From positions 2,112,001 to 2,176,000 of the forward strand of contig CM000151.3 of assembly GCA_000004695.1 (NCBI GenBank): a stretch of DNA of 64,000 bases. The letters are read 5' to 3'. The notes under the pieces were generated by a model, which searched no databases, had not been told where the DNA came from, and worked only from the letters and a program-made list of their open reading frames with translations. The stretch comes from Dictyostelium discoideum. Its lineage: Eukaryota. A program made the position numbers and the translations under genes. This document shows, in pieces, positions 2,528 to 63,703 of the stretch; positions within the stretch are counted from its first letter, which is position 1, and each line of letters starts with the position of its first letter.

Positions 2528-3084
2528 ATGATTCAAACATTTTATATATAATGGATCATTAATATCTATTTTATTCTCTTGAAGTTCATTTAATTTCTAT
2601 TTTTTTGGAGAGAAAAAAAAAAAAAAAAAAATAATAAAAGAAATTTTTTTAAATTAATAAAAAAAAAAATATACATACATTATATCCAATACAAAATAAT
2701 TTTATAATTTCTGTATTATTTTTATTATCACTTTGTTTTTCACTATTTATTGAGTATGTTGGAATTTGTATTTTGTGTGTATTAATTTTAAAGAAAAAAA
2801 AAAAAAAAAAAAAAGTATTTTAAGTAGTAGTAAAATCTGAAAGTTTAATATTGATTTCATATATAAAAAACTTTATTTTTAATGTTTTTTTTTTTTTTTT
2901 TTTAATATTTACACAATTTTTTTTTTCAATGGAAATTTACAAAAAATAAAAAAATAAAAAAAATCTAAAAAAAAAAAAAATCTGAAAAAAAAAAACATAA
3001 ATGATGCCATTTTTTTTGAATTGTAATAAAAAAATCCAAAATCGAGATCTTTGCAAACTTAATTTTCCATTCAACATTTTTTTT

Positions 3085-3200
3085 TAAAATCTTTCAATAA
3101 AGACTAGCAACATCAATGACGACCACAAATTTCAATAACAACACCAATGATATTTCTTTCCACTCCCATTCCAAACCATCACAGCCGCAAAATGCTACCC
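3085..3200 (-). pseudogene. Degenerate fragment related to the 3' part of the hssA-like gene at 4293..4516
   Basis: GC-richer island. Minus-strand frames give ...NIIGVVIEICGRH* and VAFCGCDGLEWEW..., which resemble ...[18 protein letters not shown] / [11 protein letters not shown] but carry stops and frame breaks. Confidence 0.3.
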
Positions 3201-11897: not shown

Positions 11898-14411
11898 TTA
11901 CTCTAAATTTTTAATTAAATTATAAATTAAACCAGATTGTAAAATTGATTTGCAAGTATTTTCTTTTGCAGTTTTTTTATTTTGACCAGATTTAAAATGA
12001 GAATGTGCAGCTTCTTTATTTATATAGAAAGTAGCAATAGCATTAAAAAAACCAGAACCATCAGGAGTATGTTCCCAAGCTATACCAAAATCAAATGTAT
12101 GTCTTTTAACTTGAATAACCATCTCTTGAACCAAAGCACTAGCAGAAGCAAAATAGGAATTTGTATCCATTTCTTCATCAACTTGATTAACTTGAGTTGT
12201 ATAGTTTTGTTGTTTTAAAGATATTGGAAGTTCACCAGTTTTTAAGAAATTAATAGCCTCTTCTAAATATCTTTCTTGATTTTTAAAGAACTCATAGATG
12301 TTATCCTCTCTTGGATCATCAACTTTGACAATACCATAGAAATAACTATCCCTATTTCTTAATCTACCCCTTGATTGAATATTAGCAGTAACGGTTGTTG
12401 GTGGATCTAATCTAATTACAATATTACATTCTGGTACATCGAATCCTTCTTCCACTACACTAGTTGCAACTATAACATTACATTGATCACTTCTAAACTC
12501 TTCTATAGCCTTCTTTTGAGATGATATTGACATTCCACCAATAGAACCATGACCAACTACTAAATTTGGTTTAATAAAAGAGAATCTATCACCCATTCTT
12601 AATTGATCCAAAAGTGAATAAACTTTCTTTGCTACGTCTCTTGTTTTTACAAATATGATTGCTTTTAAATCATCACTCTTTTTTTCATCCAAAATTTGTA
12701 ACGCAATCTCTAACTTTGAAATACTATCCGCAATCTCTTCATCACAAGGTAACGAATGAACCATTGCTAAAATCTCTGATTGAAGTTCTACATCATCAAT
12801 ATTTGAAATCTCTTCAATTAAAAAGGATTTTAAATTTAAACCAACTGGAATTGCACTACCAAACATTTTAAAATTAATAAAATCATTAATTTTTTCAAAA
12901 AATGATGATAAAAACTTATTTAAATTATGATTTTGAGTACTACTATTGGAACCACCACCACCACCACCAACACCTAAACCTTTTAAAGTATTACTATCAA
13001 TTACTGAAGTAACAGAATCAAATAATTCTTGATTATTACTAAGATTTGGTTTATATTTTGAAATTAAATCTTTTAAGATTTGAATTGAGTGACGTTCTAA
13101 ATTATTTGTTGGAATTGGTATGATTTTAATATTCTTTTGATTAATATATGGAATGATTGATTGATTAGTTGGTTTTATAATTTCACAACGACTAACTTTT
13201 GAAATTAATTTCAAGGATAATAAAGTATTGAAAAAATCTTTTTTACCAGCTGGTGACGCAGTTAAACCTAAAATCTTTGGATGACAAATCTCTGGAATCG
13301 TATTTAATTTATCACGTAATAATTTAGCGAATGAATGCTCTTTAACTATATGATGAGCTTCATCGATAACAATCAAACAGAAACTAAGTATATTTAAATC
13401 ACCATTTGATAAAAGTTTATTGAATAAATCACCAATCACCACCAAAACATCAAATCTTTGCTTCAATTGAACTGGTTTAAATGTTTCACCGTGAGCTGAT
13501 AACACCTTTAACCCCGTCTCTGTCTCTATTACGTCTGATTGTTGGATTACCAATGGGATTCTATCTACAATGAAAACTATTTGCTTTGAAGGATTCAATT
13601 GCTTCATTTTCTTTATCACCAAACATGATATTAAAGTCTTACCTAAACCAGTTGGTAAACAACATATTATATCCTTTTCCATTGATTTTCTATAGAGTTC
13701 ACATTGATAATCTCTTGGTTTACTCTTATTCATCTCCATTGGTTTACCATCATCACCCTGTTGTAATGTTTTTATAATTGGCATACCAATTGTTTTAATT
13801 TGACCGAGTGTAAGATTATTACAATTTTCATCTTGAAAAATGCTATTCATAGTATCAACTCTTTGTTGTAAATCACCAAGTGTTCTCTTTAATCTTTCAA
13901 TTTCATTATCCTTTTCCATTTGAGTTGGTTCATTAAAATGTAAATAACTAAAACCACCACTTAATAAATTTCCATCATTTTTTTGTTTTTCAATTAATTC
14001 ATCTTTAATTTTATTTTTATCTATACTAATAAATTTTGAAAATAATGAATCTATTGATTGTTTTGTTTGATATGTTAATTGTTGTGGTTGTTGTGGTGGT
14101 GGTGATTCTATTTCTTGTTCTTGTTGTTGTCTAGTTTTTTTTTGTTCTTGATATTTATTATTTAAATCTTCTCTTCCCTGTTGATTTAAATAATTTAAAA
14201 CTTTTATTGCGCAACATGATTCTGCTGTTTTTTTATTTTTATACCAATCGGAATATACAATTTTATTGTTATGTTTTGAATTAATTTCACCAACGCGTAT
14301 GTGTGTACGATATTCTCTCTCGTGGTCAGGTCCTCTACACTCTGAATGGTATACTGGTAAATATCCTATTCTTTTTTGTTGAATATAAGTTTGTAAATCA
14401 TTTTTAGTCAT
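11898..14411 (-). CDS. Dicer-type DExH/DEAD helicase flanked by N- and C-terminal dsRNA-binding domains (837 aa); architecture as described for the Dictyostelium RNAi suppressor HelF
   Basis: N-terminal dsRBD (DLQTYIQQKRIGYLPVYHSECRGPDHEREYRTHIRV...KKTAESCCAIKVLNYL). Helicase motifs I CLPTGLGKT, II VIDEAHH, III LTASP, VI QSRGRLR. C-terminal dsRBD-like (YFASASALVQEMVIQVKRHTFDFGIAWEHTPDGSGFFNAIATFYINKEAAHSHFKSGQNKKTAKENTCKSILQ). Confidence 0.8.
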   Translation of the reverse strand: MTKNDLQTYIQQKRIGYLPVYHSECRGPDHEREYRTHIRVGEINSKHNNKIVYSDWYKNKKTAESCCAIKVLNYLNQQGREDLNNKYQEQKKTRQQQEQEIESPPPQQPQQLTYQTKQSIDSLFSKFISIDKNKIKDELIEKQKNDGNLLSGGFSYLHFNEPTQMEKDNEIERLKRTLGDLQQRVDTMNSIFQDENCNNLTLGQIKTIGMPIIKTLQQGDDGKPMEMNKSKPRDYQCELYRKSMEKDIICCLPTGLGKTLISCLVIKKMKQLNPSKQIVFIVDRIPLVIQQSDVIETETGLKVLSAHGETFKPVQLKQRFDVLVVIGDLFNKLLSNGDLNILSFCLIVIDEAHHIVKEHSFAKLLRDKLNTIPEICHPKILGLTASPAGKKDFFNTLLSLKLISKVSRCEIIKPTNQSIIPYINQKNIKIIPIPTNNLERHSIQILKDLISKYKPNLSNNQELFDSVTSVIDSNTLKGLGVGGGGGGSNSSTQNHNLNKFLSSFFEKINDFINFKMFGSAIPVGLNLKSFLIEEISNIDDVELQSEILAMVHSLPCDEEIADSISKLEIALQILDEKKSDDLKAIIFVKTRDVAKKVYSLLDQLRMGDRFSFIKPNLVVGHGSIGGMSISSQKKAIEEFRSDQCNVIVATSVVEEGFDVPECNIVIRLDPPTTVTANIQSRGRLRNRDSYFYGIVKVDDPREDNIYEFFKNQERYLEEAINFLKTGELPISLKQQNYTTQVNQVDEEMDTNSYFASASALVQEMVIQVKRHTFDFGIAWEHTPDGSGFFNAIATFYINKEAAHSHFKSGQNKKTAKENTCKSILQSGLIYNLIKNLE

Positions 14412-14675
14412 TTTATTAAATTTTATTTGTTTATATTATATTTTTATATATTGAAAGAAATAGGGGTAAAACATAATAAATTCCCGTTTTCTCGAAAATA
14501 TAAAAAAATAAAAATAAAAAAAAAAAAAAAATAAAAAAAAAAAGTGTTTGTTTCAACCAATCTTATTTTGTTTTTTTTTTTTCCCTGTAACACATTTTAA
14601 TCAAAATTTTATTTTATTTTTAGAATTTAATTATTAATCATTATTAAAAAAAACAATTACAATAAACGAGAGGGA

Positions 14676-14741
<66 letters not shown>

Positions 14742-14767
14742 GGTTATTTTCGGGGGACTGTGTATTT

Positions 14768-14799
<32 letters not shown>

Positions 14800-14876: not shown

Positions 14877-17800
14877 TTACTTTTTTTGTTTTAAATGATT
14901 AATAATCATTTGATTTATAATTTCTAAATTATTTTCTTGAATGGTGTCAGTATTACTATTACTATATTTTGTAATTATATTATGAAGTTGTAAATATTTA
15001 TAAACACAAGAAGAATTATTTGAATCTGTTAAAATTTGAATCCAATCATTAAATTCAATCTGTTTACAATTAAATTCACATTTTAATATTTGATTAATCT
15101 GTTGTGAATTTATATTATTATTATTACTATTATTATTATTTAAATTAATTGTATTAAATAATAATTTTCCTTTTTCATTATCATGCTCATAATAATTTTG
15201 ATTATTTATTTGATTTATAATTAAATTTGATAAATGATTAATTGGAATGGTTGGATATGATGTAGAAACGTTTGGATAAAATCCAATTGAATGACAAGAT
15301 TGTAAAAATAATTGTAATAATTCATTTTCATTTCCTAAACCAGTTTCAATATTTGAAAAAATTGGAGGAATTCTTATCATTGTTGATGGTATATTAAATT
15401 TTATTGAACAATCTTTTAGAAAATGTTCAATTAATAAACTACTTTGAATTTTTCCACTTGATAATGGTAATTTTTCAATTGATTCAAAATTTGGAATTTC
15501 AATACTATTATATTCATTTTCATTAATAAATTCATTTGATATTCCTAAATAAATATATATTGATGATATATTTATAATTGAAATTTTATTATTATTATTA
15601 TTATTATTATTATCATTATTATTACAATAACCATTAATTATTAAAGATTTAATTAATTCTTTAACCAAATTTAATTCAGTTTCATTAAATTCTTGTTCAA
15701 ATAAAATTGAATCTTGAAATGAATCACTTGAAACAATAATTATTAAATTTATATCATTATTTTTGATGAATAATTGATTATAGTCTTTTTCTGATGAAAC
15801 TGATATAATATTAATTTTTGAAATTTCATTTTGATTTAAATTAAAATATAATTGATGGTACTTTAGGCTTTGAATTATTAAATCAATTGATGTATTTAAA
15901 CAATAAACTATAGAACAATTTGAATCTTTAACTAAATTAAATAATAAATAAGTACTTAAATAACCACCACTTGAAAAAGGGAATAATATTCTTTTATTAT
16001 TTTTACTAGTACCACCATTTTTAGTAATATTTACATACGATGATGTTGATGATGAAAATTCATTACCAATAACTTTTAATTTAATTTGTTTTTTCCAAAA
16101 TTTTAAATTTTTAACATTATTATTTTTACTTTTACCCCCAATGAATGAACCAGTTTTAATATTTTCATTATTATTTGATTGTTGATTACTATCTTTTATT
16201 TTTTTATTATCAATAGCTGTAATGATAATTTTAATTACTAAAGAGATTGTATTATTTTGAATTTGTTGAATTGTAATAATATTTGGAGAGATTTCTTTAT
16301 CTATCCAATTTTTTAATTGAACAGTTAATAATGAGTCTGCACCATAATCAAGTAATCGTAAATCTTGATTAATTTTAGATGATTCAATTGAAAGGAATTC
16401 TGATATTTTATTAATGAAAATATCTTTAATATTTAATGAATCTACAACTTTTCCACCACCACCACTGCCACTACTACTATTGGAACCACCACCACCACCA
16501 TCGATTGAATTAATAATAAAATCAAATTTTTGTTTAGGAATTTGAGCATTTACTTTAAAAGCTGGAAAATTGAAATTACAAATTAAAAGATTTGTTGATA
16601 AATGTTGATTTTGAATTTGTAAATCTAATGAACCTAAAATTAAATTTGTAGAGATTGGATTTAAACCTTGACCAACTAACATTTCACCAACTGATTCAAA
16701 TCTTGATACAAATCCTGCATCACCTAAAGAACCATAATTTGTACAAATTGATGGTAACCCAATTGATTTTCTAAATCTTGATAATGAATCTAAAACATTA
16801 TTCGCACAAACATAAGAACATTGTTTTGAAGAACCGATGATTGAAGCAATTGAAGATGCCATTACAAATTGTTTTAATTTCCAATTCCTCTTTATCGATT
16901 GATTATGTAAATTAATTGCACCAAATGTTTTTGCACCATGTGAAATATCCAAACTTTCCATATCAATTTTATTAACTTTTCTAGAAACTTGTTGAAATGC
17001 AAAATGAAAAATTGAATCAACATTATTTATCAATGGATTATCTTTTAATATTTGATCGATTGATTCATTTACTAAACTTTCATTACAAATATCAATACTC
17101 TTAAAATGAAATCTAATATTTGAATTATTGTTTACTAATAATTCTAATTCCCATTTCATTGGTGATTTTGAAAATATTATAATATCTTTAACACAATCTG
17201 AAAATTTAACAATCCATTTTAATATCTCTAAAACTATCCCCGTTTGACCTGTAACTAATATTGTTGAACCTAAATTATCATTATTTATTTTATAATTTGA
17301 TTTTAAAATTGGTTCCTTAACATCAATACTACCACTACCACTACTACTACCACTACTACTACTACTATTGAAATTATTATTTTCAATTAATTTATTTATT
17401 AAATTAATATTATTATTTACAATAATTTTACCAATATGTTTACGTTCATTTATAAATTCAATTGCTTCTTTTATTTTTAAATTTGAATATTCATTAATTG
17501 GTATTAAATTTAATTGATTATTTTCAATTGCATTTGATATTTGTAAAAATAAAATTTGAAGTTTTCTTTTATTTATAAATAATAATTCAACATTATGATA
17601 ACCATAATTATATTTGAATTTACTAAAATCTATATATTCATTTGGATTTAAATGAGTGATTGATAAATCAACGATTCTACCACCACATTCCAAACATTTG
17701 AAATTTGAATCTAAATAATCACTTGATAATGTATTCAATATTAAATCAACACCTTTTTTATTTGATCCCAATTGTTTTAATTTTAATTTAATTTGTTTTA

Positions 17801-19037
17801 CATAATCTTTATTTCTTGTTGAATAAATTCCAGTGATAAAATCACCATAGGTGTCAATAAGATATTGCTCTTTCTCTTTTGAACCTACTGTAACGAATAG
17901 ATGTGATTTATGACCTTTCCATTTCAATATATTCAATGCAGATAAACCAACACCACCAGTACCTGAATGAATTAAAATTGATTCATTATCTTGGATATTG
18001 AAATTACCAATATTGAATATTGAATATAAAGATGTTAAATACACTGCTGGTATTGATGCTGCCTCTGAGTGGCTTAAATTGGTTGGTTTCTTTACAATGT
18101 AATCTTTATCAATGATAATATGAGAAGATGACGAATCGAACGCAATTCCATAAACTTCATCACCCACTTTAAATTGATCTTCACCACAATCTTTTCCAAC
18201 CCTTGTAATGATACCAGAGAAATCAATACCAATCTCTGGATTGTTAATATCACCTTTACGATTACAAATCTCTGGCGGAACCAATCCACAATATACTAAA
18301 TAATCTTTATAATTCACTCCTAAACTTAATACATTCACTTCAACCTTATTCGATTTAATAATTTCTTTTCTCGATTTTAATTTATATTCTAAATTTGATG
18401 TTAATTTTAAATAAACATTTGAAAAAGAATCATTACTAACACCAATACCATATTCAAATGAATTTGATTTAAATGTATTGATTAAATTTTTAATTGATTC
18501 TTTTTTATATCTTTCATAATAAATTTCATTATTCATTATTATAAATTCCTTTTGAGTATTAATAGTCTCATCAATTAAAGAATCAATTTTTGAAATTAAA
18601 TTTAAATTTTCAATTGATTGTTGATCAAAATCTATATAGAAAAGTTGTAATTGTTCTGAAAACTCTTCAAAATACTTTGCAGCTCCAATAACTGATGCTG
18701 ATAAATAATTTTTACCATTATTTACATTGGTTGTAATTAAAACATGTTTACATTTTAAATTATTTGATGATAATAATCTCTTATTAATTTCAATAAATTC
18801 AAATGTTACCAATTTAAAATTTTCAAAGTTTAATTGTTCAATAGGTTTAATAAAATAAATTATTGATTTATTTGTAATAATATTTGATTCTTCTAATTCT
18901 ATAAATTCTTTAATACTTGAAATTTTAATAATAATTTTAAATGAATAAATTGATTCTAACATTTTAATAAAATGATTATTATTATTCTTATTATCTTTAT
19001 CAATTTCATTACAAAATATAATAACATTATCTTCATA

Positions 19038-19118
<81 letters not shown>

Positions 19119-22100
19119 ATTAATTTCTAGAATTGATGGTTTTTTACAATGAATTAAAAAAGAAACTGATTCTAATTCTTTTGACATTATTATATATTTA
19201 AAATTATGATTTGTTAATAAATCGAACCAAGATTGTTGATTCATACAACAACTATCTTTTCTGATATCAGTATCTTGAAATGACCACCACTGATTGAAAA
19301 CACCAAATACATTATCTAGAATTATTGAATTAAATGGTGGTTCTATAAATAATAATTGACCATTTGGTACAAGAACTTTATAAATTTGATCAATTGAAAA
19401 TCTAATATCTTTAACCACATGTAATACATTTGACATTATTACATAATCATAATATGAATATTTCAAATTTTGTTTTTCAATTAATGGTTCTTCTAAATCT
19501 AATGAACGATAAATTATTTTTATACCAAATTTACCACCATCTAAATCTAAATCATTATTATTCTCATTATTATTATTATTATTATTATTGTTTATAATTT
19601 TTGATAATTTTAATTTTGCATCTGGTATGAATGACGTTGAAATATCACTCCATGTATATTCAATATCAATTTGATTAAAAACATTATTACTCTCTTCAAG
19701 TAATTGAGTAATTTTATTTAATACAACCATTGATAATGAAGAAACACCACCACCAAATTCTAAAATTCTTATTGTGATTTTCTCTTTTTTCAATACCAAT
19801 GGTTTAATAGATTCTTTAATAATTTCAGCAAGTAATTGATGATTTTTTGCAACAAATTCAGTATCTGAATAAAATTTATCAAGTAAACCATCTTCAAATA
19901 AAATTTGTGGACTATCTAAATTTGAATCATTTTCATTTTCAAATGGAAATAATTGTTTTGAAATTACTCTAGTTGATCTCTTTAAAATTTTATAATTATT
20001 ATTATTTTCCATTTGTTTTTTTAATTCTTTAAAATTATTATTATTATTATTTTTATAACCAAACATTTTTATAGTTTTAAAAACTGATTTAAATAATCTT
20101 TCATATTGAATTGAATTTTCTAAATTTTTATTAATAAAAATTGATTTAAAATTTAAAAATAATTGATCAATTGATTGATTTTCAATTTCTTTAATTGTTA
20201 TATTTGAATTTCTTTTATTAATATTTAAAAACAATGAAGATGATATAAAATTTTGATAAATTGAAATATTTGAACTATAGATATCTTTTGATTTAAATTG
20301 ATCAGATTCATAAAGTGATTTAAATGATGAAGGTGCACCAATTGGTGAATCTCTTGGTTGTAAATATCTTGAATATACTAAATCAATTGGATATTCAATT
20401 TCTAAGGGATTTTTAACTATTTTTAATGATTTACAAATTACTCTTTCAATTTCAATTAAAATCGTACCATCTTTTAACATTATAATAATTGATGCTAAAT
20501 ATGAATTTCCTAATCTTGATTTAAATTTTGAATAAACGAAAATACTATTATTACTACTATTAATATCATTTGTTTCATATACTTGTAAATTTGATGAATA
20601 ATATTTTAATCCTTCAATTTTATGAAAAACTAGTTGACAATTTTCTTGAATTAATGCAATCATTCCATGTAAACAACTATCTAATAATTGTGTTTTAAAA
20701 AATGATTTTGATGTTGATGAATTAACAGTAACTTCTGATAAAGAACAACTATCACCTAAAAAACACTGAATAACACCTTGAAATTCATCATTATAAGTTA
20801 AACCTGTTTTTGATTTTATATGTTGATATAAATCAATTCTTGATATTTTTGTTTTATTACACTTTTTTGAAATTATTTCTTGTAAATTTAATTTTTTATT
20901 ATTATTATTATTATTACTATTATTATTATTACTATTATTATTATTTAATAATTGAAAATTAGCAATACATGATTGTACCCATTCATTTGATTTATTATCT
21001 TTAAAGTGATAATAAAGTTTAAATTCAGTTTTACCAGTTTGGAAAACATTTGTTTGTAAACATTGATTAATACCATCTATTAAAATTAATGGTGATTTAA
21101 ATTCCATTGAACTAATAGTCAAATCTTGTGATGGATATAATTTCAATAGATTATCAATGTAACCACAACCTGGGAAATAGTATTTACCATTTACAATATG
21201 ACCTTTAAGATATTTGAATGGTTCTTTCTTTATATCAATAAATGTTTGATATGATTTAACATTTGATGAATTATCATAGTTTGATAAACCAAGTATATCA
21301 ATTGGTGGTCCCTCAATTCTATGTTTTTGTTGAATCAAATCTTCTTTCCAATACTTTTCATCATCCCATTGATAATTTGGTAATGGTTGTGGTTGTGGTT
21401 GTTGTAGTGGTGGTATTACTGTGTGGTTGTGGTTATTAATACTACCACAATCAAATTGTGATTTAAAATTAATATTATATCTATTTTCACAATAAAGTTT
21501 AGCAATTGTTTTTTGAATCTCCATAGTATCATTCTTTTTCTTATGAAGTGGTGAATAAATTGATATTTTCCCACTAAAATAATTTGTTGATACAGGTATC
21601 ATTTGTTTTAAATAAAATTGTAATGTTGGATGTGGTGCTAATTCAATGAATACAATATCAGTTCCCAATTTATTTATTTCAATATGTTTATATAAATTTG
21701 ATATAGTTTGTGAAAATTTAACTGGTTCTACTATATTATTATAAATATATTCAGAGTTAAATGGTGTTGTTGTTGTTTCTACATTATTATTATTATTATT
21801 ACTATTATTATTGCTATCATTAAAATTATTATAATATAAATTTGTTGTAACAGTTGAGAAAATTGGTATTTTTGGTAATTCATAATCAATATTTAATTTT
21901 GAAATATCATCTTTTACTATTTTTTGATTTGAAGTATGGAAAGATGATAATGAAGCTAACATTTTTGAGAAAATTCCTTTATCTTTTAATTCATTTGATA
22001 TTTGATTTAATTGTTGTTCTTTACCTCCTAATACAATTGAATTTGGTGAATTGTAACATGCAATTTCAATATCTGGGTATTTAGTTGAATAATTTGATGA

Positions 22101-22898
22101 TAAATAATCTTCAGAGCTAATATTAACTGATAACATTCTACCACCATTACAATGTGTTTGAATTTGTGCTAATGATCTATGATAAATTAAATAACATAAA
22201 GTATCCAATGTAATCATACCTGAGCAATAAGCTGCTGGAATCTCACCTAAACTATGACCAACTATAAATGATGCTTCAATACCCCAATGTTTATAAAATT
22301 CAAATAATGATATAGCTAACATACACATTATTGGTTGTGCGATTGTTGGATGTTGAATACTAATATCATCATCATGATCAGTAATTGATATGAATTTTTC
22401 AAAAACTGAATAACCATAATATTTAAATAATTTATTATCAAACATATTGATTGATTGTTTGAAAATTGGTTCACTATTATATAATTCCATTGCCATTCTA
22501 CTATATTGTGAACCTTGACCTGCAAATACAAATACAACTATAGGATTCTTACTATGAACCATTGACATTGTTGATGACTTTGAATTTAATGTTTGAACTC
22601 TATTTAATTGTTCTTTCTCTTCTCCTTCTCTTTCTTTTTCTTTTTCTTTTTCTTTTTGTGATTGTTTTTGTTTATTAAATTCATCCCAATTTGAAACCGA
22701 AAAAATTACTAAACGTTGATAAAGTGATAAAGATTTATTAAAAATTTGATTTTTAACAAATTCATTAAAATTTATTTTTAATTGAAATTCTTCACTTTCA
22801 ATAATTGATTGATATTTCTTTAATGATAAAGTTGAATTTGCTGAAAAAGGTATTAAATACTTTTTTGGTTGACTATTATCATATTGCTGCTGTCCTCG

Positions 22899-22960
<62 letters not shown>

Positions 22961-24353
22961 GATTTTCATTATTTTTAAATTGTGATAAAATTAAACAACA
23001 ATTTGAACCAGTAATACCAAAACTATTGATTAACATTGTTATTTGTTTATTTGTATTAAATTGAATTGGTTCAGTTACAACTTTTAAATTCCATTCATTA
23101 AATTTAATCATTGGATTTGGTTTATTAAAATTAATATTTGGAACAAAGTAACCATTTTTAAACATTAAACAACATTTAATTAATGATGCAACACCCGATG
23201 CTGCCTCTAAATGACCAATTGAGCTTTTAATTGACCCAATTAATAATGGTTGTTGAGTTGTATTATTATTACTACCACTACAACTACCACTACCAATAGC
23301 AATATCATTTAATTGTTTAAATGAATTTGAAATTGCTTCTAATTCAATTGGATCGCCAGTTGGTGTACCAGTACCATGTGCTTCAATATAATCGATATTA
23401 TTGAATTTAATTTTACCATTGGTTGATTGAATTGCCATTTTAATATTTTCACACTGTGATATTGATGAAGGTGAAAAAAAGTTTTGTTTATCTTTTAAAC
23501 CACCACCATCAACATTTGAACTTGCACCATTGATAATACAATAAATGGTATTACCATCTGATAATGCTTGTTTTAAACTTTTTAAAACCACAATTCCAAC
23601 ACCTTCTCCTCTGACATATCCATCAGCACTTTCATCAAATGTCATACACCTTGCTGTACCATTAGTTGATTTACTTAACATATTTAAATGGGTGAATGAT
23701 TTTGAAACGTTTGTATCCAACAATAAATTTACACCACCGACAATTGATAAATTACAATTGTTCTGCTTACTGAATTTAATTGATTGGTAACCCATTTTAA
23801 TAGCATTCAATGATGATGAACATGCTGTATCAATTGTAATTGATTCATTACGAAAATCAAAACAATATGATATACGATTTGAAATTGAATGATTTGTCAA
23901 CCCGAATATATTAGATTTGTTATTATTCATTTGATTTTGTTGTTGATTTTGATAATCATTAGTTGAACAACCAATGAAAACTGATGTATTTGAACCACGA
24001 ATTTTCATTGGATCAATTCTTGCATCTTCTAATGCTTCCCATGTACATTTTAATAATAGTCTTTGTTGTGGATCAATGCTTGGTGCTTCTGATGGATTAA
24101 TACCAAAAAATAATGGATCAAATGATTTCCATTCATCAAGTGGTAATAAACCAGCATTTCCATTTGAAATTTCACCCAATTCATTGAAATTATCACTCCA
24201 TCTTTCTCTACTTTCAATAATACCATCAAATCCATTCATTAAATTATCCCATAATTCAATTGGTGAATCATTTGATTTAGAAATATCTCCCGATGGTAAT
24301 CTAAATCCAATACCAACAATTGCAATTTCATCATTATCATCAATAATATTATT

Positions 24354-24400
<47 letters not shown>

Positions 24401-24401
24401 T
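14877..24401 (-). CDS. Type I iterative polyketide synthase, 3174 aa: KS - poly-Q linker - AT - DH - C-methyltransferase - ER - KR - ACP - about 450-aa C-terminal domain of unknown function
   Basis: KS (IAIVGIGFRLP...DTACSSSL...HGTGTPTGDP...GHLEAASG). AT (GQGSQY...GHSLGE). DH-like (HxxxG...GHIVNGKYYFPGCGYID). MT (LEFGGGVSSLS, SAM-binding). ER (LIHSGTGGVGLSA). KR (ILVTGQTGIVLEIL). ACP (LDYGADSLLTVQLKNWI). 22-Gln tract from (CAA)n between KS and AT. Confidence 0.92.
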
Positions 24402-25293
24402 ATTTTTGTTATTATTATTATTAAATTTATAAATGAGAATATTAGTAAATTAATAATTTTATATGTTTTAAAAAAAAAAAAAATTTTAATAATAAAATAA
24501 AATTAAATTAAATATATATTAATAGTTAATTAATTAATCTTACTTTTAAACCTTTTTAGAAATTTATCGTTTTTCAAATAAAATTTATTTACTAAAAAAA
24601 CTTCATTTTATCTCTTTATATCTGTTGCAGAATATACAAACTCAAATGAATGAAGAAAAAAAAAAAAAATTGAAAAAAAAAATTGTAAAAAAAAAAAAAA
24701 AAAGAATATTAACAAAAACACCAAATCGACACAAAAAAAAAAAAAAAAAAAAATCTCATTTTTATATCATTTTATGTATGTTTGGGTGCTCTTTTTTTCT
24801 TAAAATAAATAAAATTAAATAATTAATAAAAAAAAAATGAATAATAAAATGAAAAAAAAATAAAATAATGGTGCAGATCTAATCTTTTTAAACCACAAAA
24901 TATAGATTTTTTTTTGAAAATTATTTAATTATCTATTGTAAAAAAATTACACTTTAAAATTTCATTTTTTCATTCAAAAAAAAATAACAAGTAAAATGTT
25001 AATTATTAAATAATTAATTATTAATTACCTTAAAAATCACACCGGTTTTTTCACATGCAAAAAAAAAGAAAATGCTAAAAGTAATTTTTTTTTTTTAAAA
25101 TAATAACAAACTCCCAACTTCCGACACTTTTAAAACCCAAAAACATTGGGGAGTTAAAAAAAGAAAAATGATTTGATCTCTTGGAAGTTTTCAAATTTAT
25201 TTTTAAAAGGAAAAAAAAAAAAATAAAAAAAGATTCAGACTTTTTTATACTTCCATTTACGATTGGGTGAACTTAATCCTGGTCCCAATGTTG

Positions 25294-55089: not shown

Positions 55090-57650
55090 CTATGTTTTTA
55101 TTTCTTTGTTTTTTCTTTTTAATAAATTGAATTAAAGAATTGATAGTATTACTTTGAATTTGTAGAATGGTTACTAAATTTATACCAATTTCTTTATCTA
55201 TCCAATTCTTTAATTGAGCAATAAATAAAGAGTCTGCACCATAATCCACAAGACCAATATCTAAATTTAGTTTAATTTCTTCAATTGATAATAACTCTGA
55301 TATCTTGGAAATAATTAACCACCACTCATATTAGATTGCTTTGAAAATTCTGTTGCTGATTCTTCAATAAGATTTTCAAATTTAATTGAGATTGAATGTT
55401 GTGGATTATTTTTAAATATATTAAAATTAAATTGGTTGAAAGTCTTGATTTTGAATTTGTAAATCTAATGAACCTACTTTATTCATTGTGACAATATTGT
55501 AACCTTGAGCCTCTAATGTAACTGCAATCGATGCATTTCTTAAAACTAAACCAGATTTAATTGAACAAATTGATGGTAATTTAAATCTGATACGATTTCA
55601 TTTAATTTTTGTTCATTACCTGCAATGACAATTGATGTCGGTGAATTGTAACATGAAATTTCAATATCTGAATATTTTTAAGAATAATTTGATTTAAATT
55701 TAGATTCATCAATGTTTATTGATAACATTCTACCATTAGCATGGGTTTTATTTTGTGCAATTGATCTATGATAAATTAAATAACATAAAGTATCCAATGC
55801 AATCATACCTGAACAATAGGCTGCTGAAATTTCACATAAACTATGGCCAACTATAAATAATGCTTCAATTCCCCAATGAGTATATAATTTAAATAATGAA
55901 ATTGTTAACATGCAAACTGATGGTTGTGCAATTGTTGGTTCATGAATTGATTGAGTATCAGTTGTTCTTAATTTCTCAAAAACAGAATAACCATAATACT
56001 TTGACAATGCTTCATTTAATTGATAAATTGATTGTTTGAAAATTGGTTCGTTATTATATAATTCAATTGCCATTGTATTATATTGTGAACCTTGACCTGC
56101 GAATACAAATATGGTAATTGGTTTCTTTCTTTTAATTGATATATTTGCTGATTTTGAATTTGATGTTTTAAAATATCCTAATGATGGTGTTTTAAATTGA
56201 TCCCAATTTGATGCAATTATTACAGATCTTTGAAATAATGATCTTGATTTCTTTAAAATTTGATTTTGAACAAATATTGAAAATTCAACAAAATCAATAT
56301 CTTTTGAAATTAATTGTTGTTGATAATCTTCCAATGATTTTGTTGAGTTTGCTGAAAATGGTACTAAATATTCTTTATTTTTATTTTTTATGGTGTTAAT
56401 AGACTTTTCAGGAATTGTTTCTTTAAATTCGGATAAAACTAAACAACAATTTGAGCCAGTAAAACCAAAATTATAAATTACAATTGAAAAAGGTTTATTA
56501 TTATTATTAAACTTTGAAAATGGTTCTGTAATAACTTTTAAATTCCATTCATCAAATTTAATCATTGGATTTGGAATTGAATAATTTATATTTGGAACCA
56601 AGCTTTTATTAAAAAGTATTAAACAACACTTGATTAATGATACTACACCAGATGCAGCTTCAGTAAGACCAATCGAACATTTAATTGAACCAATTAATAA
56701 TGGATTTTCTTTTGAACGAGTGCCATCATTATTAAAAACCATTGATATACTTTTAGTTTCTAATATTTGTAGCTTGGGATAATGGTGCATAAAAATTTGA
56801 TTTATCCTCAAGACCGAAACCATCGACATTTGAATTTGCACCTTTTAAAATACAATAAATTTTATCACCATCTTTAATTGCTTTTGTTAATTTCTTTAAA
56901 AGTACAATACCAGTACCCTCTGCACGAACAAGGCCATTGGCATCTTTATCGAATGGTCTACAAACCCCAGTTTTACTTAACATATTAAGGTATGAAAATG
57001 CTTTAATATTTGTTGTATCCAGAATTAAATTTACACCACCAACAATTGATAAATCTGATTTACCTGTTAAAATTGATTGACGACCTAATGTAACTGCAAC
57101 ACCTGATGATGAACATGCAGTATCAACAGCCATTGACTCACCACGTAAATCAAAACAATAGGAGATACGATTAGCTGTTCCATGTGCATATGTACCAAAA
57201 ATATTTAAATATTGTTTATTTTGATTTACATTGGATTCTCTATATTCTGATGTTGAACAACCAACAATTACCGATGTGTTTGATGCTCTTAATTTCATTG
57301 GATCAATTCCTGCATCTTCAAATGCTTCCCATGTACATTTTAATAGTAATCTTTGTTGTGGATCAATAGTTGATGCTTCTGATGGACTAATACCAAAAAA
57401 TAATGGATCAAATGACTTTAGTTCGTCAAATGGTAATAAACCTGCATATCCATTACTTATTTCTCCCAATCTACTGAAATTATCACTCCATCTCTCTGTT
57501 GTTTTTACAACACCATTAAATCCATTCATTAAATTACTCCATAACTTAATTGGTGAGTCATTGTTTGCTTTTTCTTCGCCACTTGGTATTCTAAATCCAA
57601 GCCCAATAATTGCTATATCTTCATTATCATTATTTATAGTAAACTTCTTT
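55090..57650 (-). pseudogene. Relic of a type I PKS paralogous to 14877..24401: KS (no ATG, frameshift at about 56800) + N-terminal half of AT (GHSLCE) + tail of KR + ACP; DH/MT/ER and the C-terminal domain are deleted
   Basis: Minus-strand frames: [26 protein letters not shown]...[11 protein letters not shown]... (KS, 60-70% identical to the intact PKS). ...FVFAGQGSQYNTMAIELY...GHSLCEISAAYCSG... then stop. 55480-55570 VGSLDLQIQNQDF. 55130-55330 [45 protein letters not shown] (ACP). Confidence 0.8.
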
Positions 57651-60066: not shown

Positions 60067-61694
60067 ATGGGTGGTGCGGTGCTTATTAATAGTGGTAACA
60101 GTAGTAATACTCCTATTAATGAAGAAGAGCCGTCTGGATTGGAAACTAATTTTGGTACCACTACTCCAAATTTAAAAAAAAAGTACTTAATTCAGTATAT
60201 AATATTATATGCATATTTAGCGTGTATTTTTATATCAACATTTTTATATGATATTTTCATTCCAACTTTATTATTTCATTATGTTGAACATAAATTTCCA
60301 GATTTAACACCTCAAGAAAAAAGTTCGAAATCATCATATTATAAATCTTATTCTGATGGTTTTCCATTTTTAGTTATGTTTTTATTTGTAAGTTTTTAAA
60401 TAATAATTTTTAATATTTTATAACAATAGAATAATTGTTAATAATTATTAATTGTTTTTTTTTTTTTTTTTTTTTTAATAAAAATAAGGGACCACTTGTG
60501 GGATATATTTCAGATAGATATGGAAGAAAATCCAATTTTTATTTATCAGTTTTAACAGTTATGTTTGTTATTATGTCATGTTTTGTATCAATGGAAACAA
60601 ATAACATTTATTGTTTTTATGTTTTCCATACCATTGGTGGTTTATATAATGTTTCAAACTCTGTAGTTTTTTCATTCATTTATGATATTTCCGATGAAAA
60701 AGATATTCCAGTTTTGTTTACATTATGTGGACTTTCAATGGGCCTTGGTACAACGATTGGATCTTTAATTTATGCATTTGTACCAACTGATAAGGTTCCA
60801 TATATGATGTTATACATTTCTAGTGGGTTCGCTTTAGTATCTCTTATACTTGTTCCATTTTTAATTGAAACCATTCACATCTCTCGAGAAAATAATAAAA
60901 ATAAAACTTTTGTAAAAAAAAGTTTTGAAAATCCAAATCCATTCTCAACTATTAAAAGTTTATTCACAAATAATGGTTTTATTTCTTGGACAATTTTATT
61001 ATTTTTTTCAATTCAATATACTGGTCAAGATATCTGGTCAACCTTTTACTATTACTCATATCTAATGTATAACTGGAATCAAAAAACAATTGGTCTTTTT
61101 ACTCTTGGTGTTGGTGGTGCAACAATTTTATATAGTGTTTTAATTGTTCCATTATTTTTAAAAGTTTTATGTATGTTGTAAATTTATAAATTATTTTTTA
61201 TTATTGTTGAACAAATTTAATTAAATATTAACTTTTTTTTTTTTATTTCTTTCTTTTTTTTTTTTTTTTTTTTTTTTTTAGCTGAAAAAAAAGTAATTAC
61301 AATTGGATTCTTTATTACATTCTGTGCACATGTAATGCTATCAAGTTCAAAGTTTTCACAATATCTTTTTATTTTTGGTGCAATAGTTAGTAGTATTGTT
61401 CCATGTGTTTCGAATTTATTATGCTCTGTAATATCTAAATCTACACCTCAAGAAGTTCAAGGATCAGTATTAACAGGTCTTCAATCTGTAAAAGCACTTG
61501 GTAGCTTTGCTGGTGCCATGGTAGCTAATAATTTACTAAGTCATTTCTCAAGTGATGAATCATCGATTTACTTTCCTCAAGCTATCTATTTTTTAAATGG
61601 TGTTGTATTATTTATAATAATGATCATTTCTATTTTAGTTTGGAGATTTTATAAAAACAAAATCAAAAATAATGTAAACAATAATAACAATTAA
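60067..61694 (+). CDS. Major-facilitator-superfamily transporter; 3 exons (60067..60387, 60489..61170, 61282..61694), about 471 aa
   Basis: MFS motif A GPLVGYISDRYGRK at the start of exon 2. About 11-12 hydrophobic helices. Introns GTAAGT...AAG (phase 0) and GTATGT...TTAG (phase 1). Confidence 0.75.
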
Positions 61695-61912: not shown

Positions 61913-63703
61913 TTAAACATATCCACCTTGGTTACCGAAAATTGATTGAATTTGAGTATTGTATTGATTAATTTCACCTAACCATTCTGGTTTATCTTGA
62001 GCGATTTGGTTATAGAAAACTCCGGCCATTAAGTAATTTGCAATTTGGTTTGGATGGAAACCATCAATTGGTTCTATAATAGGAAAAATTAAAAAAAAAA
62101 AAAAAAAGTTAGTATTAACTTTATTTAAAATTATTATTATTATTATTATTAAAACTTACCAATAAGATCATAAGTTTGACCACCTTGAGCAACCCACATT
62201 TCATTAATAGTTGCGAATGGGAAATCGTAATAAATCATATCGAAATTATTAAAAGTATAATTTTTAATGAGTTGATTATAAACGAGAGATAATTGAGCAG
62301 CACGATTACTGGTATAATCACGAACTGTTTCATTTGGATTCATCCAACCCCAACATGGACTTACTTGAATACAATTTAAGAAATCATAAACCTCTTCATA
62401 TGTACAACCGAGTGGATGTGTTCTATTCCATAAACTATCCCAAAGTACTCTACCATCAGCTAAACCAACAAAAACGACATGTGAACCTTTTGGTAAAGTT
62501 GTTTCTAAATAATTTAAGATTGTTAAAATGTTTTCACCAAATTCTTCTACGGTAGTCATTGAATCATAATCATGATGACCACTACAAACATCGTTACCAA
62601 TGAGTTCGAGGAATAATAAAACTGGTTTATCAGTGTTTTGGTTACGGTTAATGGTTTGAATGATGGTTCTTGTACTTGATGAGCTAGCACCATTTACACC
62701 TAAATTTTGGTAATCTCTATGATTACATAAATTTCTTTCTCTCATTCTGAGATACATTGAATCTACGTTTGGTGCAGATGTATCCCAACCAGTGTAACAT
62801 GATCTCATTGGCCAATCGACTTCAGTCTCTAAAATGTCAATCATTCCTTTGTAAGTGGTGGAATTAATATCTCTTGCTGTCATCCATTGTGGTGGAATTG
62901 AGAAATGTGCACCTGCTGAATCACCAGAAACAATTACACCCATTGCACCAGAGTTGGAACAAAATAATTCTTCATATGATTGTGATTGATTATTGACACC
63001 AAAAATACCATTACAATTCTTATCAACACTTGCATCACCTGTACCTTCAATTGTACCTGGATATGATGATTTATCAAAATCATTACAATCTTTACCTCTC
63101 CAATTATAACCTCTAAAAGTTGCTTCAACTAAAAAAATAAAAAAATAAAAAAAATAATAAAAAAAATAATAATTAAATATTTAAAATTAGTAAATTAATT
63201 TAAAAATAGAATTAAAATAAAACTAAAATAAAATACATACGTGAATGATGATCACCATCAAAATCTTGAATTGGTAAATGTTCAGATGAAAAGACTTTAA
63301 TTAATTCTTGAATCCAAGCCCATGGACTACCTCCAACTTTTGGATCTTCTTTGTTATATTCTTGATGAACATGATCTGGATTATAGAATTTAGATGGTGC
63401 ACTTGTGAATAATCTACAAGTTGGTGATGTACAAACGTTCATTGCATGACATACATCATCAGCATTTTGGTATTGATCAAAGTATGAAATGATTTGTTCA
63501 CCATAAGTATTAACTAACCATGTACAAAGTGAACCAGCTTCATCTGGGAAAAATGAACATAATTCATCTAATGAATCTTCAATTGATTTATTATGAATAC
63601 CTGAATATTGGTTAACTAAACTTAATACCTTTTTTTTTTTTTTTTTAATTTTTTTTTTTTTTTTTTTTTTTTCGAAAATGGAAAAAAAGTGATTAGAAGA
63701 TAT

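Follow-up and report, generated by a model that had tools for sequence, protein, structure and literature searches.

The amoeba Dictyostelium discoideum has 40 catalogued polyketide synthases (PKSs), of which 21 carry a domain behind the acyl carrier protein (ACP) and 19 carry none, and in 19 of the 40 this post-ACP domain is a thioester reductase (TR) (PMC12828403). We analysed one of these 40 genes, which lies on the minus strand at positions 14877..24401 of a 64,000-nucleotide stretch of D. discoideum chromosome 2 (GCA_000004695.1, contig CM000151.3, positions 2,112,001 to 2,176,000, hereafter the window). Neither the gene nor its architecture is new; what we add to the published survey is that its TR tail is, judged by sequence, catalytically degenerate, and a search of the searchable literature found no statement of such degeneracy for this PKS.

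The closest described systems are the other TR-bearing PKSs of D. discoideum, which share with this gene the organism, a core of ketosynthase, acyltransferase, dehydratase, methyltransferase, enoylreductase, ketoreductase and ACP (KS-AT-DH-MT-ER-KR-ACP), the post-ACP position of the extra domain and the domain family (PMC12828403). Paralogues at other D. discoideum loci are 55–61% identical to it in KR, ACP and AT, and the four paralogous PKS TRs examined in D. discoideum and D. citrinum all keep the Y...K pair, and the other motifs wherever these were covered, whereas the tail studied here is without TGxTGFLG, CLxR, GDL, NSAA and Y...K. Bacterial and fungal reductase (R) domains and carboxylic acid reductases (CARs) share with the tail an extended short-chain dehydrogenase/reductase (SDR) fold and a position directly after the carrier, at 12–16% identity (MxaA 4U7W/4W4T, 8V1X, CAR 5MSV, PhqB 6NKI and the Mycobacterium tuberculosis (Mtb) nonribosomal peptide synthetase (NRPS) 4DQV), but these have a nucleotide loop and a Thr/Ser-Tyr-Lys triad and the tail does not. 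The Steely synthases StlA and StlB are likewise Dictyostelium type I PKSs with an extra C-terminal offloading domain, in their case a type III (chalcone-synthase) PKS, to which the protein under study has no match. A different likeness is to the pseudo-KR and pseudo-methyltransferase of animal fatty acid synthase (FAS) and type I PKSs, Rossmann-type domains which have lost cofactor binding and are kept for architecture; the tail is also Rossmann-type, has lost its cofactor-binding motif and is retained in a megasynthase, but the FAS/PKS pseudo-domains are internal to the modifying region and universal, whereas the degenerate TR is terminal and occurs in a single gene among the dictyostelid sequences read. 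Finally, the fungal R* domain of CpaS, an R-type domain which ends a megasynthase, has its catalytic Tyr replaced, by Leu where our tail has Lys, and needs no NAD(P)H for product release (Liu & Walsh 2009, reviewed in PMC3202784). R* domains come after an NRPS module and retain a GxxGxxG-type motif, whereas the amoebal protein has no NRPS module, has lost the catalytic Lys too and has an eroded nucleotide site.

A thioester-reductase fold behind the carrier protein

The protein continues for 433 residues beyond the ACP, of which the last ~370 (residues 2803–3174) form a folded domain. A first-pass annotation, made from the sequence alone, had described this region as an uncharacterised post-ACP domain of about 450 aa, quoting the strings FPFSSGGYLSTYLL and GYCNNN, which we locate from residues 2807 and 2924 respectively; the length was roughly right for the whole extension (~430 aa from the ACP) but too long for the folded part, and the domain proved to be recognisable. 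Pfam at default thresholds gave no match beyond the ACP, which is the one observation in favour of a new domain, unknown in fold and, as that annotation supposed, in function. At a lax threshold the tail matched PF07993 (NAD_binding_4) with E = 0.005 and 16.4 bits (gathering score 20.1 bits), over the C-terminal part of the model only, and the terminal R domain of the myxalamid synthase MxaA (4u7w) with E = 0.026. All seven homologues described below passed the PF07993 threshold (best 1e-56), whereas the tail did not.

A homologue search with the raw tail came back empty because poly-Asn words crowded the candidates; with the Asn runs removed it returned one match, P0001, a 440-aa thioester-reductase-domain protein of D. 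firmibasis (BLASTP, 31% identity over 357 columns, E = 3e-33), which is the closest relative of the tail that was sequence-searchable. An exhaustive phmmer search over 1.84 billion representatives brought up no more than 14 relatives, and all ten that were traced to a source were dictyostelid (D. cf. discoideum, D. dimigraforme, D. citrinum, D. purpureum, Polysphondylium violaceum, Acytostelium subglobosum and one EukProt entry). A profile of the tail with seven homologues matched MxaA at 1e-51 and the Streptomyces coelicolor PKS thioreductase 8v1x at 3e-38, and also the R domains of an archaeal NRPS T-R, PhqB, the Mtb NRPS, CAR and AusA. The N-terminal half of the tail aligned with a profile made of the homologues alone at 98.3% probability (hhalign, E = 1.9e-14), and upstream of the domain the linker sequence FWKKQIKL matches the (F/Y)W.NE.KLD motif found in the homologues' ACP-TR linkers.

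The fold points the same way. An AlphaFold2 (AF2) model, built on an eight-sequence alignment dominated by intact TRs, had a mean pLDDT of 66.5 and a pTM of 0.73, with alternating beta and alpha elements, six strands and a helical C-terminal subdomain, a predicted strand pattern that fits a Rossmann-type core. In the PDB its best Foldseek matches were terminal thioester reductases throughout (8v1x, 6vtj, 4w4t/4u7w, 8aep, 6nki and 4u5q/4dqv; TM 0.49–0.56), with no thioesterase or chalcone synthase among the PDB and fold matches; the fold is not a new one. Against TIGR01746 the tail scored 29 bits (cut-off 213) over model positions 163–318, the C-terminal half only, where P0001, likewise under the cut-off, scored 152.7 bits over positions 2–299. 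By descent and by fold the tail is thus a member of the terminal TR family (extended SDR, PF07993/TIGR01746), and the significant sequence, profile and structure matches refute the idea of a novel domain, to which we give next to no credence.

P0001 was considered as an orthologue of the tail and rejected, since the gene stands alone and its context is unrelated. It lies at L004:10001-11323 (D. firmibasis CM069768.1), between urocanase and lipase genes with no PKS attached, and its motifs are intact.

Loss of the cofactor-binding and catalytic motifs

We compared the tail with 12 dictyostelid TRs, seven of them in alignments and five more taken from the surroundings of PKS fragments, namely those of a 3,024-aa PKS of D. 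citrinum and of a fragment next to it (L002), of one D. discoideum PKS (L005) and of a further two from D. discoideum (L006). A KS search gave only short fragments, and the paralogous TRs were reached through the loci surrounding them. In the seven aligned TRs 27 columns were invariant, of which the tail retains 16. The other 11 are lost, namely the G, T and G of TGxTGxLG, the Arg of CLxR, the Gly of the GDL segment, the Ala of NSAA, one Tyr, one Leu, the catalytic Tyr and Lys, and one further Ala. Both the NAD(P)H-binding loop and the catalytic motif are replaced (Table 1), the latter with Tyr changed to Lys2984 and Lys to Ser2988 so that no YxxxK remains; NSAA has become VSSD, and two segments, one of seven residues with the CLxR Arg and one of eight residues (GDLxKxxxGL), are deleted altogether. 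What remains of the nucleotide site is one Gly of the loop and the SS(I/V) strand. By comparison, the catalytic Tyr and Lys are kept in 12 of 12 dictyostelid TRs, the glycine-rich TGxTG(F/Y)LG in all ten which cover that region (the seven aligned and three of the five extra), and the other N-terminal motifs in every TR read across them. Since a second assembly has an identical tail sequence, a sequencing error or frameshift was rejected as the source of these unusual motifs.

In SDR enzymes a glycine-rich loop, a basic residue for the 2'-phosphate and a Tyr/Lys pair are needed for NADPH-dependent thioester reduction. With the loop, the basic residue and the pair lost, such reduction would not be expected of the tail, and we regard it as probable that the domain is not a working reductase. 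The opposite reading, a functional NADPH-dependent TR which releases the chain as an aldehyde or alcohol, could draw on the clear TR homology and fold, on the general literature statement about TR-bearing D. discoideum PKSs (PMC12828403), and on the retained loop Gly and SS(I/V) strand. It would however have to accommodate a catalytic pair of Lys and Ser in place of Tyr and Lys, a replaced G/T/G loop, the changed NSAA and the deletion of both the CLxR and GDL...GL segments, in a family where the Tyr and Lys are kept without exception in the comparison TRs, as are the other motifs wherever read; both PF07993 and TIGR01746, moreover, fail on the cofactor-binding half of the tail. We consider a working reductase very unlikely.

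Divergence, retention and the release of the chain

Judged by domain identities to the paralogues, the tail is the fastest-evolving part of the PKS. Against the closest available paralogue (L005) the KR shares 61% and the ACP 58% identity, whereas the TR shares 35% (31–35% across the paralogues); intact paralogue pairs of similar core identity (KR 59–60%) share 45–46% in the TR. The ratio of TR to KR identity was 0.53–0.73 in pairs with the PKS under study and 0.71–0.97 in all other pairs. Compared with the group-4 TRs, the cofactor half of the tail shares 34% identity (intact pairs 51%) and the C-terminal half also 34% (intact pairs 46%), so that the erosion appears somewhat stronger in the cofactor-binding half.

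Rapid divergence has not broken the frame. There is no stop in the 433 codons of the tail, where the other five frames contain 26–95 and shuffled sequences a mean of 46 (minimum 28), and 6.9% of all possible point substitutions in the tail would create one. The three codon positions have GC contents of 0.24/0.24/0.05, which clearly marks a coding sequence, and the C-terminal helix aligns with the C-termini of the homologues, so the domain reaches its native end. In the C-terminal half E2992, I3004, P3005, R3010, F3015, T3020, P3043 and P3053 are kept among the conserved positions, and the remaining changes are mostly conservative.

These observations bear on whether the tail is simply a functionless vestige in decay which has yet to be interrupted. 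Its rate of evolution, the loss of every functional motif, the low-complexity Asn insertions within it, the rapid turnover of PKS genes in this lineage (PMC3188802) and a PKS relic nearby (described below) would all suit a vestige. Set against this, neither a stop nor a frameshift has arisen in the tail during a divergence of ~65–70% at the amino-acid level from all its relatives, at a stop-creating fraction of point changes as given above, and the tail keeps a strong codon-position asymmetry and, in the predicted structure, a conserved hydrophobic core with Rossmann strand order. A mere vestige therefore seems improbable to us.

The same retention might also be read as the mark of a new chemistry, that is, a repurposed, non-redox release catalyst which performs an R*-like Dieckmann/Claisen cyclisation, or acts as a hydrolase or transferase in the old acyl-phosphopantetheine pocket. 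The open frame, the preserved codon structure and the native C-terminus agree with this, as do the C-terminal half with most of its conserved positions and otherwise mostly conservative changes, the heavier erosion of the cofactor half and the precedent of the CpaS R* domain, where a Tyr to Leu change accompanies NAD(P)H-free release (PMC3202784). The analogy is strained by the substrates, since the thioesters on which R* domains work are beta-ketoacyl-aminoacyl ones supplied by an NRPS and this PKS has no condensation-adenylation-thiolation (C-A-T) module, and a 1,3-dicarbonyl nucleophile is not what a fully reducing PKS would normally offer; R* domains also keep an NAD(P)H-type GxxGxxG (PMC3202784), whereas the tail has lost that motif together with two segments. 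On balance we hold repurposing as a catalyst to be unlikely. The wider proposal, that an eroded reductase was recruited anew either as a non-redox release or cyclisation catalyst or as an ACP-docking gate which controls chain length or hand-over, is similarly unlikely; if true, the recruited tail would give the fungal R* domains a counterpart in amoebae that does not depend on an NRPS, and would be a natural example of offloading domains becoming pseudo-enzymes in a rapidly expanding PKS family.

We favour instead a retained pseudo-reductase, because the frame stays open, with coding structure, as far as the native C-terminus and the residues that determine the fold are preserved. In this scheme the KS, AT, DH, C-methyltransferase (cMT), ER, KR and ACP most likely build a reduced, possibly C-methylated acyl chain on Ser2690 of the ACP. 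The ~370-aa tail, which descends from the TR domain carried by about half of the amoeba's PKSs, has neither the nucleotide loop, the CLxR Arg, the GDL segment nor the Tyr/Lys pair and would not carry out NADPH-dependent reductive release; it would persist as a pseudo-enzyme domain, either as a scaffold or as a module which docks the ACP or the acyl chain. The chain would probably leave by hydrolysis or through a trans-acting partner, and a precedent for another release route exists in the 19 D. discoideum PKSs without an offloading domain, such as Pks5 and Pks16 (PMC12828403). The suggestion of the first-pass annotation that the tail presumably handles product release is accordingly doubtful, given the lost NAD(P)H motif and catalytic Tyr/Lys.

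To this statement as a whole (pseudo-reductase, scaffold or docking role, and hydrolytic or trans release) we assign a probability of roughly 0.5, and several points weigh against it. An open frame would equally fit a recent loss of function, or selection against truncated products only. The degenerate motifs were read in D. discoideum only, in two assemblies. The AF2 model is only moderately confident (pLDDT 66.5) and its alignment is dominated by intact TRs. Ser, Gly and Lys residues persist near the old motifs and may permit an unusual mode of cofactor binding, and in the published survey every one of these tails falls, with no exception, under the label "most likely thioester reductases" (PMC12828403). 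If the tail is indeed a pseudo-reductase, predictions of the product of this PKS should not assume an aldehyde or alcohol, and the gene offers a convenient test case for the role of a dead offloading domain in an iterative PKS.

The synthase gene and its surroundings

The coding sequence is an uninterrupted open reading frame (ORF) of 9,525 nt (3,174 codons and a stop), with no in-frame stop where the other two sense frames contain 249 and 598, in a window which is extremely AT-rich (17–34% GC in 2-kb bins). The first-pass description of a single 9.5-kb ORF thus holds, on the minus strand. An independent single-exon call in another D. discoideum assembly (GCA_054883475.1, locus L001) likewise gives 3,174 aa and differs by one SNP in the whole ORF, which is synonymous (E2178, GAG>GAA, window 17868). 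An upstream exon which would change the N-terminus was considered and rejected, because an in-frame stop lies 17 codons before the ATG, the KS begins at about residue 24 as in the homologues, and the second gene call is also single-exon. A 152-aa antisense ORF at the 5' end of the gene (window 23974-24432, plus strand) extends over the (AAT)n tract and is in all likelihood no gene but an artefact of low complexity.

Pfam gave the domain order KS-AT-DH-cMT-ER-KR-ACP, as the first-pass annotation had proposed, with the DH below the cut-offs but in its expected place and with its motifs readable in the sequence (HxxxGxxxxP as GHIVNGKYYFPG and DxxxH as DSCLH). The KS has a complete Cys-His-His active site (DTACSSS 191–197, EAHGTGT 340–346 and SIGHLE ~393–398), the phosphopantetheine Ser of the ACP is Ser2690 in GADSL, and all core catalytic motifs, from KS to ACP, are intact; the reducing set of DH, ER and KR is present with a cMT in the order DH-MT-ER-KR. 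Pfam matched neither a thioesterase or chalcone-synthase domain, as had been noted at first pass, nor an NRPS condensation or adenylation domain anywhere in the protein. By these domain calls and motifs the gene is an intact iterative highly reducing type I PKS of the dictyostelid clade with a C-methyltransferase, and that part of the earlier description stands.

Table 1 Features of the PKS gene in the window, with protein residues and the basis of each call.
Feature	Window position	Strand	Residues	Basis
Complete single-exon PKS coding sequence	14877..24401	-		ORF list and translation; stop at 14877-14879
Asn14, (AAT)14, directly after start Met	24357..24398	-		Codon count
Ketosynthase	23127..24332	-	24-425	PF00109 5.5e-65, PF02801 1.9e-27
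Gln21, (CAA)21	22899..22961	-	481-501	TRF 21.3 copies, 100% match; codon count
Acyltransferase	21600..22535	-	623-934	PF00698 1.6e-37; GHSLG 715-719
Dehydratase	20424..21236	-	1056-1326	PF21089 and PF14765, both sub-threshold, expected order
C-methyltransferase	19194..19793	-	1537-1736	PF08242 1.9e-09, PF13489 1.2e-07; S-adenosylmethionine (SAM) motif ILEFGGG
Asn26, (AAT)26, MT/ER interval	19038..19115	-	1763-1788	TRF and codon count
Enoylreductase	17418..18353	-	2017-2328	PF08240 and PF13602; NADPH motif GTGGVG
Ketoreductase	16725..17264	-	2380-2559	PF08659 7.2e-24; TGQTG and YVCAN
ACP	16179..16442	-	2654-2741	PF23297 5e-33; GADSL 2687-2691
ACP-TR linker	15996..16178	-	2742-2802	Homologue alignment
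Degenerate thioester-reductase-like domain	14880..15995	-	2803-3174	BLASTP, hhalign, profile, Foldseek
SSGGYLS replacing NAD(P)H-binding TGxTG(F/Y)LG	15954..15974	-	2810-2816	Alignments
GKIQSS replacing catalytic GYxQSK	15438..15455	-	2983-2988	Alignments

The homopolymer tracts needed some revision. The start codon is indeed followed directly by exactly 14 Asn, all encoded by AAT. The Gln tract does lie between KS and AT, but it counts 21 rather than 22 codons and is not the linker itself; it is an insertion within a ~195-aa KS-AT linker domain (PF16197 match 428–511). Poly-Asn tracts of 20–30 residues had been reported both between MT and ER, where we count 26, and after the KR, where no such tract was found; the longest later Asn run is N8 (residues 2931–2938), inside the tail, and the KR-ACP interval carries a Gly/Ser-rich run. 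All tract lengths are equal in GCA_054883475.1, a comparison between strains which is uninformative as that assembly is near-identical over the ORF. Homopolymer tracts are abundant and positionally unconserved across dictyostelid genomes (PMC3188802), and the poly-Q and poly-N tracts are ordinary for the D. discoideum genome and not special to this gene.

Head-to-tail with the PKS, 466 bp beyond its stop, is an ORF (11898..14411, minus strand) for an 837-aa RNA helicase identical to D. discoideum AX4 DDB_G0294407, with an N-terminal double-stranded RNA (dsRNA)-binding motif followed by DEAD/ResIII/Helicase_C domains. It is this identity that places the window on chromosome 2. The spacer between the two genes (14502-14798) contains homopolymer runs, namely a perfect A61 (14678-14738), a T34 and an A42. 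The other flanking ORFs are, like the helicase, housekeeping-type (including MCM) or without a Pfam match.

A frame-broken and internally deleted PKS relic lies 31 kb away on the same strand (55184-57637). In residues of the intact PKS it consists of KS 19–321, a frame break, the C-terminal part of the KS with the first half of the AT (381–805), and the end of the KR with the ACP (2542–2705); it lacks a TR tail and lies ~130 bp from the start of the next gene, which encodes an AAA ATPase. Because it shares 54–62% identity with the intact PKS over the KS and AT parts, the relic reads as an old paralogue with internal deletions rather than as a recent tandem duplicate. Clusters of PKS genes are known from the D. 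discoideum genome, and the first-pass annotation had seen in this pair a secondary-metabolism hot-spot. This was overstated: the interval holds housekeeping-type or Pfam-less genes (PH-domain, membrane acyltransferase, DcpS/HIT, WD40, CfaA-like, UDG, APC8 and AAA ATPase), and among the window ORFs no biosynthetic gene cluster and no adjacent tailoring enzyme was found by Pfam. Beyond the relic are an MFS transporter, a GDSL lipase and a saposin gene. The acyltransferase (PF01757, 34352-36199, plus strand), the MFS transporter fragment (60435-61181, plus strand) and the GDSL lipase (62149-62943, minus strand) are the only conceivable candidates in the window for release or export in trans, and none adjoins the PKS.

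Other dictyostelid loci met in the comparison were denser in PKS genes. In D. citrinum (L002, JBTAPL010000082.1) three P450 genes lie interspersed among two complete PKSs and a split PKS fragment, whilst in D. discoideum GCA_054859385.1 one such neighbourhood (L005) holds a tail-less 2,514-aa PKS, then a TR-bearing PKS and then a stand-alone methyltransferase, and L006 of the same assembly is another. A short protein of D. cf. discoideum (P0002, KAM9988497.1, 1,272 aa) combines KS-like, AT, ACP and TR regions, with an intact TR and no DTACSS Cys motif in its KS region, and is either the product of a pseudogene or an enzyme of a minimal loading/reducing type. In L002 and L006 a short intron interrupts the TR domains after ...IIIRPP.

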